This document shows, one piece after another, positions 7,171 through 60,075 of a stretch of DNA of 64,000 nt. Position 1 is the first letter of the stretch, and each line of letters begins with the position of its first letter. A model generated the notes under the pieces. The model was given only the letters and a program-made list of their open reading frames with translations, was not told where the DNA came from and searched no databases. This DNA is from an uncultured Candidatus Saccharibacteria bacterium (GTDB lineage: Bacteria > Patescibacteriota > Minisyncoccia > Phycocordibacterales > UBA2100). The DNA is taken from NCBI GenBank assembly GCA_964594735.1, contig CAZQMS010000003.1:30043-94042 (forward strand), read 5' to 3'. Position numbers and translations under genes: made by a program.

Positions 7171-7284
7171 GGTATACCCCGTGAGATAAGGCGCCGCCAT
7201 GCGGCACACCGGGGGCACGTTTTTCGCGCCATTATTGCTTTCAAATTCATACAGAATGAAATATCTCACGGGGTATACTGCGCC
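7171..7284. repeat. Inverted-arm element family 1, copy A (GGTATACCCCGTGAGATAAGG ... 69-nt spacer ... ATATCTCACGGGGTATAC)
   Basis: 17-bp perfect inverted repeat GTATACCCCGTGAGATA. The right arm ends 12 nt before the ATG at 7286. Similar arms occur at 10808-10906 and 33040-33143. Confidence 0.55.
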
Positions 7285-7285
7285 T

Positions 7286-7828
7286 ATGAGGCGCGTTCTT
7301 GCCGTATACATCGTGCTCGGGCTCGTAGGTGTGGGCGCTGCCGCGTACGCATACATGCAAGAGGGTGGCTTTGACGCTCGCGACGGAGGTGGCGCGAGCG
7401 TGGACACCGGCATACAAGCGACCTCGACTGGGCAAAGCCTCGCGTCTCACGATGGCGAGCCCCGGGATGCAGAGCCGAGCGTTGTCATAGGTGGTGTACG
7501 TGTGCGCGTCGATATTGCGGATACGCCAGAGGAGCGTGTGAATGGCTTGAGCGGACGAGAGCACCTCGCGCAAGGGGAAGGCATGCTCTTTATTTTTCCC
7601 ACAGACGACCACCACGGCATCTGGATGAAGGACATGAACTTTTCGATAGACATTATCTGGCTCTCGGCAGAGGGGCGAGTCGTCGATATCGCGCCACATG
7701 TGTCTCCGGAGACGTATCCAGCCTCATTTTCGCCGCGAGATGTAGCCCGAAACGTTCTTGAAGTCCCAGCAGGCTTCGCAAAATCGCATGGTATAGCGGT
7801 GGGAGCCGAGGCCACGATTTTGAGGTGA
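7286..7828 (+). CDS. DUF192-like secreted/membrane-anchored protein
   Basis: Signal-anchor MRRVLAVYIVLGLVGVGAAAYA, then a DUF192-like core (EGMLFIFP...HGIWMKDMNFSIDIIWL). The start was moved from 7199 to the ATG directly before the TM helix. Confidence 0.6.
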   Translation: MRRVLAVYIVLGLVGVGAAAYAYMQEGGFDARDGGGASVDTGIQATSTGQSLASHDGEPRDAEPSVVIGGVRVRVDIADTPEERVNGLSGREHLAQGEGMLFIFPTDDHHGIWMKDMNFSIDIIWLSAEGRVVDIAPHVSPETYPASFSPRDVARNVLEVPAGFAKSHGIAVGAEATILR

Positions 7829-10461: not shown

Positions 10462-10716
10462 CTAAATCGTTTCGAGGTCGACGATGTCGTCGGGGCGCTG
10501 CAGTTGGACAAAGGTTACGATTGCCGCCTCTCCGACAGTCTCGTTAAGGTTCTCGAGTTTCTGAACGACGCCGTTTACTCGGAGAACCCCGTAGGAAAAC
10601 TCCTGGCCCTGGAGGCGTGCCTCAAGGAGAATGCGCCGCAGAGTCATTCCTCCATACCCGACTTGTGTGATTTTTTTTGTGGTGCCGTCGAGATAGCTGC
10701 ATTTTACGGTGGGCAT
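10462..10716 (-). CDS. Small beta-grasp-like protein (84 aa; TGS/ThiS-like fold suspected)
   Basis: Strong SD (CAGGAGAAAAGCA-ATG) for the start at 10716, with a terminator downstream. The overlapping antisense plus ORF 10504-10824 is rejected. Confidence 0.55.
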   Translation of the reverse strand: MPTVKCSYLDGTTKKITQVGYGGMTLRRILLEARLQGQEFSYGVLRVNGVVQKLENLNETVGEAAIVTFVQLQRPDDIVDLETI

Positions 10717-10727
10717 TGCTTTTCTCC

Positions 10728-10748
10728 TGTGCAAGTCAGACTTGCACA
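10728..10748. promoter_or_regulatory. Perfect palindrome TGTGCAAGTC-A-GACTTGCACA between the promoter and SD of the 10462-10716 gene (candidate operator)
   Basis: 10+1+10 perfect inverted repeat. A second palindrome TTGACGC-TGG-GCGTCAA lies at 10760-10776 and includes a TTGACG -35-like hexamer. Confidence 0.4.
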
Positions 10749-10807
10749 AGAATGCAACGGTTTGACGCTGGCGTCAAATTTGGTAAAATGTGCCTCTGCA
10801 CTAGGCA

Positions 10808-10906
10808 GTCGCCCCGTGAGATAAGGGCTTCGGAGTTGGCTATTGTTCGGCTTGATAAAGGAATCCGAATACCGGCACCGATTCAGAATCTGTTATCTCA
10901 TGGGGA
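10808..10906. repeat. Inverted-arm element family 1, copy B (GTCGCCCCGTGAGATAAGGG ... 65 nt ... TTATCTCATGGGG); its right arm lies inside the rnpB 5' region
   Basis: Arms match copies A and C. The spacer contains the rnpB P1 5' strand. Confidence 0.5.
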
Positions 10907-11372
10907 GGAAAGTCCGGACACAGGCTTCGCAAGAAGCAGAAAGGTAGCGGGTAACGCCCATCCGCCGCGAGGCGAGAGATGCGAGCAGTGACGCCAACTC
11001 CGAAAGGGGAAGGGTTCCTTCGGGAACAATCATGTCGTAAGGCATGGGTGAAACGGCAAAATTCTTACCCCTGTGCAAGACCGTGACCCATGGGATAATG
11101 CGCTCCGAGTATCTTCGGGTAGCTGCTTCGAGAATGCAGTTCGGAGATGTATAGGTAACCGGAATGCGTTATCCCACGGGTAGAGTCGCTTGAGGTGTGT
11201 GGCAACACACATCCCAGATACATGACGGCCACCGGTTTTGTCTGCCGCAGGCATTTGCAAGGTCGAGAATCTCGAATGAGGTGGGGGACAATCCTTCGCT
11301 CTCGCTCAGGGTCCTCGATTTTGTAGCCACCTGCGGTGGACACAATCGGGACAGAATCCGGCTTATCGGTGC
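10875..11372 (+). ncRNA. rnpB: RNase P RNA (bacterial type A)
   Basis: Conserved blocks GGAGGAAAGTCCGGAC (P4 5' strand), GGTAACGCC, GTAAGG..GGGTGAAACGG and GACAGAATCCGGCTTATCGG (P4 3' strand / 3' end). P1 is GCACCGAT (10875-10882) with ATCGGTGC (11365-11372). A terminator-like hairpin follows at 11380-11413. The 5' boundary is uncertain, and P3 appears very short. Confidence 0.85.
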
Positions 11373-11551
11373 AGAGCAGAGAGCGAAGCAGAGATGCTTC
11401 GCTCTTTCGCTTCCGAATGAGCAAGTCGACTCTGGCACAGCCAAAGAGGGTGCAGAAAACAGACCCCGCGGGGGGTCCGTTTTCATATATGTACTCCACA
11501 GTGCAAACGCGGGGTGGTCGCCTGTTATCGCGTGCTACCATAAATGGCACT

Positions 11552-31818: not shown

Positions 31819-33054
31819 ATGCATGAGAAGACCTTCCCCGATGGATTTTTGTGGGGAGCCGCTACCGCCGCATACCAAGTAGAAGGGGGGATAGAGAATT
31901 GCGACTGGGCCAAGGCGGCGCGCGAGGGTAAAGTGCCGGCGTGCGGGATGGCCTGCGACCACTACAATCGCTACGAAGCCGATTTTGATATTGCAAAAGA
32001 GCTCGGGCACACCTGCCACCGCCTTTCTATAGAATGGGCGCGCATCGAGCCGGAAGAGGGGAAGTGGGACGAGAAGGAGGTCGAGCACTATAGGAAAGTG
32101 ATTGAAGCGCTGCGCGCGCGGCACCTCAAGCCGTTCATTACACTCTGGCACTTTACATTGCCACAATGGTTTGCAGACAAGGGCGGATTCGAGCACCCGG
32201 ACGCGCCGAAGATTTTTGCGCGCTACTGTGCTTTTATTGCGGAGAAATTTGGCAACGACTGCCGCCACTTCGCGACGATGAATGAGCCGGGCGTCTACGT
32301 ATCCAATGGGTGGAGGCGGGGGAGCTGGCCGCCGTTTCGTGCGTGGCCGGGCATCGGCGCGATCAGAGCAGTTCCCGGCCATCGCGAGTTTAGCGCTCAG
32401 CACATCTCGTGGCGCAACATCCCGGCATATTTCCGTATGATGCGGCGCTTAGCTGAGGCGCACAACGTTGCGTACGATGCGATGAAGGCCGCGGGCTTCG
32501 GCGTGGAAGTGGGGCTCGTGCACCAAGTAATCCTTTTCCACGCGAATGCTAATCCACTCAATAAGCTGCTCGCAGCGGTGATGAACTGGCACTGGACGCA
32601 CTCATTCATTCGTCGCGTGCACCACAAATGCGATTCTATCGGGGTCAATTACTACCTGCACAAAAAGTTTGGTGACACGCGTGTGTACGACAAAACAGAT
32701 ATGGGCTGGGATGTGTACCCCGAAGGCCTCTGCGACGCGCTTCTTATGCTGAAGCGCTACGGGAAGCCACTGTGGGTGAGCGAGGCAGGCGTGGCAGATG
32801 CCGGAGACCGCATCCGCGCCGACTACATAGAGCGACTCATCCGCTGCATGCACACGGCTATCGAGAAAGGTGCCGACGTGCGCGGCTACATGTACTGGTC
32901 GCTCCTCGACAACTACGAATGGGCGCACGGCTTTGAGAAGCGATTTGGGCTCGTGGCGGTTGACTACGCGACGCAAGAGAGAAAGGTGCGTCCGTCGGCG
33001 TACGTATACAAAGCAATAATCGAGCGCAATGGCTTAGTAGACCCCGTGAGATAA
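31819..33054 (+). CDS. Glycoside hydrolase family 1 beta-glucosidase
   Basis: N-terminal FPDGFLWGAATAAYQVEGG; catalytic-acid region ...TMNEPGVYV...; nucleophile region YITENG-like VSEAGVAD; C-terminal motif WSLLDNYEWAHGF. Confidence 0.85.
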   Translation: MHEKTFPDGFLWGAATAAYQVEGGIENCDWAKAAREGKVPACGMACDHYNRYEADFDIAKELGHTCHRLSIEWARIEPEEGKWDEKEVEHYRKVIEALRARHLKPFITLWHFTLPQWFADKGGFEHPDAPKIFARYCAFIAEKFGNDCRHFATMNEPGVYVSNGWRRGSWPPFRAWPGIGAIRAVPGHREFSAQHISWRNIPAYFRMMRRLAEAHNVAYDAMKAAGFGVEVGLVHQVILFHANANPLNKLLAAVMNWHWTHSFIRRVHHKCDSIGVNYYLHKKFGDTRVYDKTDMGWDVYPEGLCDALLMLKRYGKPLWVSEAGVADAGDRIRADYIERLIRCMHTAIEKGADVRGYMYWSLLDNYEWAHGFEKRFGLVAVDYATQERKVRPSAYVYKAIIERNGLVDPVR

Positions 33055-33143
33055 GCCAATTCGATGACTCACACGATCGTCGCGGCCGGCGGGTTTGTTC
33101 GCAGCAAATAGTCGGAGGGAGTATCTCATGGGGTAGAATAAGG
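33040..33143. repeat. Inverted-arm element family 1, copy C (GACCCCGTGAGATAAGCC ... 63 nt ... GTATCTCATGGGGTAGAATAAGG)
   Basis: The left arm contains the GH1 stop codon. The right arm ends 12 nt before the ATG at 33146, the same spacing as copy A. Confidence 0.55.
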
Positions 33144-33145
33144 CG

Positions 33146-34036
33146 ATGTCGTGGCTCTGGATAGCGATTGCCGCACAGTTTCTCCTCGCGATTTCAGTCG
33201 TTATCGACAGGCATATTGTCGTGAGGGCGGCGCACATCGGCCGACCCATCGTCTATACATTTTATACGTGTGTCCTCTCCGGCTTTGTCGTGGTCATCGC
33301 GCCGTTCGGGCTCGTCTCGATGCCATCGAGCGAGGTATTCTTGCTTTCGCTCCTGAGCGCCGCGACTTTTGTCGCAGCGCTCTACTACCTCTACAGCGCG
33401 CTGCGTGTTGCACGTGCATCCGACGCTGCACCCGTCATCGGGGCGATTTCTGCACTCACATCACTGGCTCTCGCGTGGGTATTCGTGGTGGGCGACATCA
33501 GTGCGCACGCGGTGCCTGCGGTGCTGCTCCTGGTCTCTGGTACTGCGCTCATCTCGCACTTTCACTTCAGGAAGCACGCTCTTGTGTATGCACTCACCGC
33601 AGGAGGGCTCTTCGGTGCAGCAATTTTCCTGACCAAACTCGTGTACAACGCGACAGGCTTCCTCGACGGATTCTTCTGGACGCGCGTACTCGCGCTCGTA
33701 GTCGCACTCTCTTTCCTCGCGGTTCCCTCGCTGCGGCGGGCAATTTTCCACGGTGGTAAACACTCGAGTCGCGGTGCCAGATCGCTCGTGCTCGCCAACA
33801 AAGTAATCGCGAGTAGTGCAAGCGTGCTCACGGCGTATGCGGTATCTCTCGGGAGCGTCGCGGTCGTCAATTCGCTTGCGGGTCTGCAGTTCGCATTTCT
33901 CTTCATCTTCTCGCTCCTCTTTGCCAACTTCATGCCGCGGGGCGATGACCCGATGACGCACGGTCACGGCGGGTGGCAGACCGGAGTGGGTGTGGTACTC
34001 ATCGCGCTCGGGCTCGGCACGCTCTTCCTCACATGA
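33146..34036 (+). CDS. DMT-superfamily (EamA-like) 10-TM membrane transporter
   Basis: Two repeated 5-TM halves, typical of EamA. Confidence 0.55.
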   Translation: MSWLWIAIAAQFLLAISVVIDRHIVVRAAHIGRPIVYTFYTCVLSGFVVVIAPFGLVSMPSSEVFLLSLLSAATFVAALYYLYSALRVARASDAAPVIGAISALTSLALAWVFVVGDISAHAVPAVLLLVSGTALISHFHFRKHALVYALTAGGLFGAAIFLTKLVYNATGFLDGFFWTRVLALVVALSFLAVPSLRRAIFHGGKHSSRGARSLVLANKVIASSASVLTAYAVSLGSVAVVNSLAGLQFAFLFIFSLLFANFMPRGDDPMTHGHGGWQTGVGVVLIALGLGTLFLT

Positions 34037-59676: not shown

Positions 59677-60075
59677 AGCTACAATCGCAGCTCCTTCGCA
59701 GCGATGCCCGTATGCACCGGGGAGGCTGCGTGCTCTGCACTACAGCCTCCCCGGCTTACATGATGAGTACGTCGCGTTCCGACTTGGAGCGCTCGCTGTG
59801 TGAGTGCATGAGAAGAAGAATTATGTGTCGAACGGAAGTGTCCGCCGGGTGCTAATGATTATCGCTGATAATCCGTCGGGGTCTTTCGCCCAGCCCCAGT
59901 TTTGCCTACAAGATACGTGCGAACCAAAACTGGAGCTGGGCTGCCCCGCAATGTGCTATGCGTCCAGATGCAAACTCTATCCGGACTAACGTGAATCACG
60001 GATGAAGATGTGTCGGTACCCGTGACACACGGGTATACGCAATACACAATATTGAGAGCACAATCGAATCAGGAA

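Follow-up and report, generated by a model that had tools for sequence, protein, structure and literature searches.

Correia elements, the miniature inverted-repeat transposable elements (MITEs) of Neisseria, are about 100-150 bp long, carry terminal inverted repeats (TIRs), make a short AT-rich duplication, meet promoter elements with their ends near genes and form a hairpin in the transcript. REPINs, the doublets of repetitive extragenic palindromic (REP) sequences, have two inverted conserved ends around a variable spacer and measure ~100 nt in total, and Rickettsia palindromic elements (RPEs) are palindromic mobile repeats that are tolerated within protein and structural-RNA genes. The locus described here is the junction between a GH1 beta-glucosidase gene and a putative transporter gene in a 64,000-nt stretch (hereafter the window) of contig CAZQMS010000003.1 from an uncultured Candidatus Saccharibacteria bacterium, and it holds an element of ~95 bp, which we call copy C. 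Judged by its genes and repeats, its closest published relatives appear to be the Ssn nucleases with their NTS/SRM repeats. Ssn proteins are single-domain GIY-YIG nucleases (cd10448) of ~90 aa that bind and cut the NTS/SRM hairpin repeats only as single-stranded DNA (ssDNA); their gene is bracketed by the inverted hairpin repeat, which is also scattered genome-wide, mostly intergenic and directional, and the authors remark on the likeness of this repeat-gene-repeat architecture to that of insertion sequences (Chenal et al., Nat Commun 2025, PMC11893778). We show that copy C is an insertion with a duplicated TAGA and not a built-in regulatory module. With a probability of roughly three in four, it is a non-autonomous, MITE-like mobile element whose two TIRs enclose an unconstrained filler of ~70 nt and which would be mobilized in trans by a GIY-YIG nuclease.

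The likeness to the Ssn system lies in a small single-domain GIY-YIG gene placed between copies of a scattered, directional inverted repeat. The differences concern both arms and arrangement. The arms (CCCCGTGAGATA and TATCTCAYGGGG) do not, by inspection, fit the published SRM pattern HGTCWYN(0-2)YYVSBRHN(0-5)WNVSBRGN(0-2)RNCYNB; they usually stand ~70 nt apart in a copy of ~95 nt, whereas the Ssn repeats are hairpins of 20-50 nt; the nuclease gene lies inside one pair of arms, with the right arm coding its C-terminus; and 4-bp target duplications and empty alleles are found. With MITEs such as the Correia elements the present element shares TIRs, target duplication, presence/absence polymorphism and insertion into promoter boxes. 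Correia copies, however, share their whole sequence and duplicate TA, whereas here only the arms are shared and 4 bp are duplicated, and the candidate enzyme is a GIY-YIG nuclease instead of a DDE transposase. Inverted conserved ends, a variable spacer, a length of ~100 nt, intergenic position and multiple copies recall REP sequences and REPINs, but the element shows no RAYT association, it has a target duplication, and its arms span several phyla, unlike the lineage-specific REPs. Like RPEs, some copies occupy structural-RNA and protein genes, namely helices of RNase P RNA and the ends of coding sequences, but RPEs insert in frame and are translated, whereas the elements here end reading frames with their own stops. 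Searched literally in the literature, the arm sequence returned unrelated primers only, and a literature search on MITEs and palindromic repeats in the Candidate Phyla Radiation (CPR) found nothing relevant.

In copy C, 12 bp of pairing join the left arm (CCCCGTGAGATA, 33042-33053; this and all other window features are given on the plus strand) to the right arm (TATCTCATGGGG, 33122-33133), with a single G·T contributed by the right arm. They enclose a unique interior of 68 nt (33054-33121), for which a BLAST of interiors found no conservation and whose fold z-score is +0.55. The element is bordered by TAGA on both sides, at 33038-33041 and at 33134-33137, the right one being the first four bases of a host TAGAAT hexamer. 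The host sequence TAGAATAAGGCG (33134-33145) comprises this -10-like hexamer and the 6 nt before the ATG at 33146, and it includes the former GH1 codons GAA TAA. The GH1 gene (31819-33054, likely start ATG 31819; Pfam PF00232, E 2e-77) has GAC CCC GTG AGA TAA (D P V R *) as its last codons, the stop occupying 33052-33054; P V R is encoded by the left arm, which together with A33054 also makes the TAA. Downstream lies the gene of a membrane protein (33146-34036) with orthologs in loci L002, L013, L020, L095 and L120, whose Pfam match to EamA is full-length yet weak (E 0.73), so that the label "EamA-like" is plausible. There are six instances of the arm 12-mer (CCCCRTGAGATA) in the window, forming three inverted pairs (7177/7273, 10812/10905 and 33042/33133; copies A, B and C), against an expectation of 0.47, and six occurrences were reached in none of 100 shuffles. 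According to an alignment of the three copies and BLAST, their interiors are mutually unrelated.

The insertion is evident from an empty ortholog. In a metagenome contig (L120), GH1, a transporter gene whose product is 58% identical to that of the window and the next gene follow in the same order with no element between them. The L120 junction reads GGTAGAATAACCGCATG and has one TAGA (GGTAGAATAA), with TAGAATAACCGC before its ATG. In codons it is GGG CTG GTA GAA TAA CCGC ATG, GH1 ending in NGLVE* 4 nt before the next start. Removal of the element and one TAGA from the window junction predicts GGC TTA GTA GAA TAA GGCG ATG, and L120 shows the same structure. Since TAGA stands on both sides of the element in the window and only once in the empty ortholog, it is a 4-bp target-site duplication. 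Through the stop inside the arm, the insertion changed the GH1 C-terminus from ..GLVE* to ..GLVDPVR*, and it widened the gap between GH1 and the transporter gene from 4 nt to 91 nt. The original prediction, made from the letters of the window, had named a comparison of orthologs for presence or absence of the element and for a target-site duplication, and L120 proved to be empty at the site where TAGA is duplicated in the window. It had also held that a lack of further copies together with an unrelated ortholog junction would speak against it; what was found is at least 118 loci with these arms and an L120 junction that matches the one predicted. Its reading of the arms as a genuine inverted pair agrees with the excess of six arm 12-mers over 0.47 expected, the overlap of the left arm with the GH1 end DPVR* is read directly in the sequence, and copy C does share the architecture of copy A, both having 12 nt from arm to ATG. 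The spacer is unique as had been stated, the interiors being unrelated, and only its length of 63 nt needs a trivial correction (65 nt between 33040-33055 and 33121-33133). The GH1 assignment stands with its Pfam E value of 2e-77, and of the EamA-like assignment a weak form remains.

Two further sites show the same kind of polymorphism. In copy A (7173-7277), one TATA precedes the arm at 7177-7188 and another follows the arm at 7262-7273; the copy sits in a box of the TATAAT type, 8 nt upstream of the start at 7286, and from its arm to this start there are likewise 12 nt (GGGG TATACTGCGCCT ATG). It is absent from a close relative (L121/L122; ribonucleotide reductase, RNR, 96% identical), in which the TATAAT box is intact: the empty site is GCACGTATAATGCTCCTATG, compared with GGGTATA[element]TATACTGCGCCTATG in the window. 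In the third case, the element has GTACA on either side in L011 and L034, and the empty L112 and L063 have a single GTACAAT before the same gene. An exact-protein look-up returned the identical contig only for the gene beside copy A and no match for the transporter beside copy C. By the names of its RNR homologs, the organism of the window is a Candidatus Kaiserbacteria.

We scanned one genome per species with the pattern CCCCRTGAGATA-N55-85-TATCTCAYGGGG, which matched at least 118 loci. From the loci listed, 136 copies with 272 ends were retrieved, and the family counts given below refer to these among the matches listed. The loci belong to Kaiserbacteria, other Patescibacteria/CPR, bins labeled Omnitrophota, Planctomycetota, Verrucomicrobiota, Ignavibacteria/Bacteroidota, KSB1 and others; in a viral contig collection the arm pattern had 0 matches. 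The terminal inverted repeats of 12-13 bp (CCCCGTGAGATA / TATCTCAYGGGG) are the same in the three window copies and in the at least 118 loci, and element length has a sharp mode at 95-96 nt. Interiors are a different matter: in an all-against-all BLAST only ~12 of the 136 resemble that of another copy, and their folding relative to shuffles (mean z -0.29) reveals no excess structure. The two ends are not equivalent, as the combinations at arm position 5 are G..C in 52 copies, G..T in 48, A..C in 36 and A..T in 0. Shorter variants exist with loops of ~5 nt (5-9) and ~35 nt, the forms of 28-35 nt being rare. In copies of the Patescibacteria type, the NN of the TNNA flanks is repeated in direct orientation only in 18, in inverted orientation only in 0, palindromic (TATA) in 30 and neither in 10. 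Exact 4-nt direct repeats flank 54/136 copies, including CGGG, CTGA and CGCG. Taken together, the copies of this family arrive by insertion, duplicate 4 bp (Patescibacteria type), prefer GG-TAnnnT and come and go between close relatives.

Some copies are arranged in tandem or nested arrays with one common 4-nt linker, right arm-TNNA-left arm forming a perfect 28-nt palindrome (L062 2712-3285; L035 2871-3068; L044 5864-6064; L071 1726-2295). On one 638-kb Paceibacterota contig (L060, L112, L114), copies lack TNNA or TTYA flanks, and their stems are prolonged by complementary bases that differ from locus to locus (CGCG/CGCG and GAGAAC/GTTTTCTC, for instance), which is reminiscent of the helix-replacing copy B.

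The preference for a particular target explains the spacing shared by copies A and C. Among the 272 ends, 29 have an ORF of at least 100 aa whose ATG is 12, 13 or 14 nt away (15, 9 and 5 ends, respectively), compared with a background of ~1 per distance, and the six bases beside the arm at these ends are TATACT, TATAGT, TATAAT, TACACT and TAGACT. Insertion into the first four bases of -10-like TAnnnT hexamers thus accounts for the recurring 12-nt spacing. On the gene side, the terminal GGGG and the duplicated TNNA rebuild GG-TAnnnT, and the downstream gene therefore keeps its start region. In the window itself, GGTAnnnT stands 5-8 nt before an early ATG or GTG in 22 of 62 long ORFs, with GGTAnnnT-N6-8-ATG as the native motif, a layout which suggests that many genes here have very short leaders or none. 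Examples of GGTAnnnT are GGTATAATCCCCCGATG and GGTACAATAGCACTATG (e.g. the 20588 region, 28457 and 48822). Since insertions favor the -10-like hexamers of such leaderless-type genes, they can serve to map promoters in uncultivable organisms. Overlap with stop codons has a comparable cause, since the arm offers a stop in each of two frames (TGA, TAA): 28/272 ends terminate a long upstream frame, mostly as ..PVR*, and at copy C the TAGAAT hexamer additionally overlaps the old GH1 stop (GAA TAA). These results bear on what the original prediction had made of copy C. The 12-nt spacing that it judged hard to explain by chance does exceed chance, 15 of the 272 ends being at exactly this distance. 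The TAGAAT box, the AAGG and the spacing exist as described, but since box and spacing are already present in the empty L120 (GG-TAGAAT-AACCGC-ATG) they are host features and not parts of the element. The argument that overlap with two adjacent genes speaks for a function fails, as the overlap shows where insertions are tolerated or targeted, not a design for regulation. Identical 12-bp inverted arms at gene ends, before starts or in RNase P RNA should accordingly be annotated as insertions, and ..PVR* C-termini, like RNase P RNAs that score below threshold, as side effects of insertion.

The GH1/transporter junction also gives a view of turnover. It is filled in the window, L013, L002, L020 and L095 and empty in L120, while the transporters are 91% (L013), 58% (L120) and 42% (L002/L020/L095) identical to that of the window; the element must therefore have been gained here two or more times, or gained and then precisely lost. 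Between the window and L013 the flanks are ~92% identical and the interiors unrelated, and the arm subtypes differ as well (CCCC..GGGG with G·T in the window, ACCC..GGGT with A/C in L013). This points to separate arrivals or to replacement of one copy. The possibility that the L013 copy is the window copy in inverted orientation was rejected, interior similarity being unconvincing in both orientations (p 0.04 and 0.15). In L002, L020 and L095, arms and G·T are identical and the interior has diverged save for a central TTAACA-like remnant. As a whole, the pattern is compatible with a hot spot that is hit repeatedly and equally with arms that are under constraint.

A candidate for the mobility enzyme is found between the arms themselves. 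ORFs of 86-87 aa with one arm on each side were found in L071, L115 and L125-L132; in L071 and L115 the ATG follows the left arm at a distance of 3-22 nt, and the codons TAT CTC ACG GGG TAA of the right arm specify the nuclease C-terminus Y L T G *. The enclosed ORF codes for a single-domain GIY-YIG protein (Pfam PF01541, E 5e-17) with no further domain. Among proteins of solved structure, UPF0213 proteins and SLX1 are closest to it, and NCBIfam gives a weak, sub-threshold match to a group I intron endonuclease model. Lineages with such arm-bounded units are KSB1, Verrucomicrobiota, Planctomycetota and others, and tblastn placed GIY-YIG homologs near elements in 9 loci. In L067 an element of 85 nt still codes for the last ~24 residues of the nuclease, and in L066 the nuclease gene is bracketed by two complete 96-nt elements; the array in L071 runs straight into the nuclease gene. 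The nuclease family comprises 1543 clusters among the candidates scored. Of the best 120 homologs, 87 end in YLTG and 4 in YLMG, the latter corresponding to the T variant of the arm. That 87 of 120 end in the residues which the right arm encodes argues for an old and intimate link between arms and nuclease. In the Patescibacteria loci L104 and L112, sister GIY-YIG genes lie between different inverted arms, as would be expected if protein and arms co-evolve. From these arrangements we infer that the GIY-YIG nuclease may mobilize the ~95-bp elements in trans.

One of these units, P0141 (L125-L132, gene at 1501-1761), interrupts the gene of a RayT (Y1) transposase between a WYL regulator and Cas3/Cas6, beside a CRISPR-Cas locus. 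The uninterrupted RayT allele is present in other samples (L133-L135), and with TTACCCC..GGGGTGA excised, the conserved WQRxYHDH motif regains its G-Y-H. L127 and L129 also have an intact paralog of RayT directly upstream of the disrupted fragment.

The mechanism that we propose starts from the host sequence GG-TAGAAT-AAGGCG-ATG, which combines the last GH1 codons (GTA GAA TAA) with a -10-like hexamer and whose TAGA the element entered. The small single-domain GIY-YIG nuclease would act on the arms in trans, with GGTATAAT as its proposed target. We speculate that an ssDNA-specific enzyme might find such targets in open promoter complexes, where the -10 region is single-stranded. A broader proposal, which we put forward as tentative, is that arm-flanked GIY-YIG units and their ~95-bp derivatives could form an unrecognized class of transposable elements, in which an Ssn-like ssDNA-specific nuclease would serve as mobility enzyme, target the melted -10 region (GG-TAnnnT), leave a 4-bp duplication and swap hairpins, including P3 and P16/17 of RNase P RNA. 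If so, this class would be a major shaper of the streamlined Patescibacteria genomes, and if the nuclease is the mobility enzyme, this would be the first GIY-YIG-driven element with transposon-like ends. The elements link Ssn nuclease/hairpin-repeat systems to insertion footprints, namely target duplication and filled and empty alleles, a link that the Ssn authors could only suggest.

Several observations weigh against a MITE-like element moved by this nuclease. Planctomycetota/Verrucomicrobiota-type copies (flanks TTYA...TRAA) show no duplication, nor is there any outside their 16-nt arms, and the nuclease unit inside RayT sits there without one. Copy B, similarly, exchanges a whole RNase P helix with no target duplication. 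The GIY-YIG gene is absent from the 64-kb window by tblastn, and no GIY-YIG gene with these exact arms occurs in the Patescibacteria loci sampled. The scarcity of shared interiors is unlike typical MITE families, and the identical arms of L002, L020 and L095 around diverged interiors could mean selection on resident copies instead of recent insertion. In addition, we know of no GIY-YIG enzyme that makes staggered cuts and joins ends so as to yield a 4-bp duplication.

Other explanations can be given for the same sequences. The arms could be genomic recognition hairpins for an Ssn-type ssDNA nuclease that modulates DNA uptake or recombination, and not transposon ends. The same arms flank small single-domain GIY-YIG genes, as this explanation would have it; Ssn nucleases bind their hairpin repeats as ssDNA only, and those repeats flank ssnA and cluster near genes; the asymmetry of the ends (A..T 0) gives the element a direction, as in NTS; and short hairpin forms with loops of 5-9 nt exist. 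We nevertheless consider it somewhat unlikely, given arms outside the published SRM pattern, a loop of ~70 nt in most copies and, above all, target duplications and empty sites that show arrival by insertion, unlike the published evidence for NTS. A role as recognition hairpin and one as mobile element are, moreover, not mutually exclusive.

It is unlikely that the element is an ordinary MITE whose DDE (or other) transposase escaped notice and that the GIY-YIG gene is a passenger captured between its ends. A combination of 4-bp duplications and TIRs is the classic footprint of DDE transposition, and a window that holds no GIY-YIG gene suits a different enzyme. However, when all ORFs of the at least 118 loci (~8 kb each) were clustered, no transposase recurred near the elements, nor did any long unit from arm to arm contain one, and the sole recurrent associated gene, from the separate tblastn, is the GIY-YIG gene. 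A mere passenger would also leave unaccounted for a right arm that forms the conserved C-terminal codons of a large GIY-YIG family (YLTG in 87/120).

A domesticated regulatory hairpin is quite improbable; the host would keep it because expression of the neighboring genes is controlled by the stem beside the -10-like hexamer or by the hairpin in the transcript of GH1 and transporter, acting as an insulator, RNase III site or brake on translational coupling. It would account for the strong enrichment of ends at -10-like hexamers before starts, for arms and G·T that stay the same in L002, L020 and L095 despite interior divergence, and for a plus-strand RNA of copy C that folds at -42.5 kcal/mol (z -4.3). 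Yet the host sequence has the promoter-like box and the spacing even where the element is missing, and the element is present or absent between close relatives whose genes are all intact. The strand that carries the G·T is unbiased with respect to the flanking genes (24 sense, 17 antisense, 15 divergent, 5 convergent), and which type of element end faces the adjacent gene likewise shows no clear bias. Around copy C no sigma-70-type promoter was detected, and a lone weak terminator-like hairpin is within shuffle expectation (1 vs 0.5). As candidates in their own right, an intrinsic terminator was rejected, the stem being followed by TAGAATAAGG with no T run and the internal hairpin being within shuffle expectation, and so was an integron attC site, the core motif GTTRRRY being absent.

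Movement of a REPIN-type doublet by a RAYT (Y1) transposase is very unlikely. The architecture of two inverted conserved ends and a variable spacer is indeed that of a REPIN, and one nuclease unit lies inside a RayT gene; but RayT is there the disrupted target and not the partner, and no Y1 transposase recurs near the elements in the at least 118 loci. The present copies also have a target duplication, which IS200/IS605-type movement does not, to our knowledge, leave. We give hardly any credit to a structured non-coding RNA (ribozyme, riboswitch or processing signal) co-transcribed with the flanking genes: the closing stem is stable, its G·U on the plus strand is tolerated in copies B and C and one copy forms an RNase P RNA helix, but there is no Rfam match to E 10 around copy C nor, save RNase P, to E 1 around copy B, the interiors are unrelated and fold no better than shuffles (mean z -0.29, 136 copies), orientation relative to genes is unbiased, and insertion is polymorphic with target duplication. 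The arms fold as DNA as well as RNA.

The remaining copies in the window lie in the gene of its class A RNase P RNA (10794-11377). Copy B (10812-10905) constitutes the whole P3 helix. It is bounded by GGCAGTCG and AGGAAAGTCCGG, precisely the location of P3, which in relatives is an ordinary short hairpin with identical boundaries (CTGTAGCTTCGGCTATAG in L123, CAGGTGTCGCAAGATTACCTG in L124). Copy B thus substitutes the entire helix and leaves no trace of the old stem and no flanking duplication; L121 has the element in a form identical to that of the window. A comparison of arms reveals a variant-arm copy of 96 nt (ACCCATGGGATAA ... TTATCCCACGGGT, 11086-11181) at P16/17, the arms of which equal those of the L013 type except for one compensatory pair. 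A further insertion of ~115 nt (11230-11345) lies 5' of the 3' strand of P4; L121 has it as well and L124 does not. Because P3 is copy B and P16/17 the variant copy, and because of this ~115-nt insertion, the RNase P RNA scores 62.9 bits, below the Rfam threshold of 100. Over the whole window, Rfam at gathering threshold gave tRNAs and the sub-threshold RNase P only, and ARAGORN gave 4 tRNAs only.

At the P16/17 position, L121 carries a hairpin of another family. A second hairpin-repeat family, with arms CCCAGCNNCAGTTTT ... AAAACTGNNGCTGGG, is represented at 59889-59940 of the window and twice in the RNase P RNA of L121 (4205-4265 and 4418-4465). Window 10680-10918 and L121 3980-4215 are 100% identical from a small upstream ORF through P3 to GGACAC, and the RNase P helices that follow directly are completely different. 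This mosaic of the RNase P region between the window and L121 suggests recombination.

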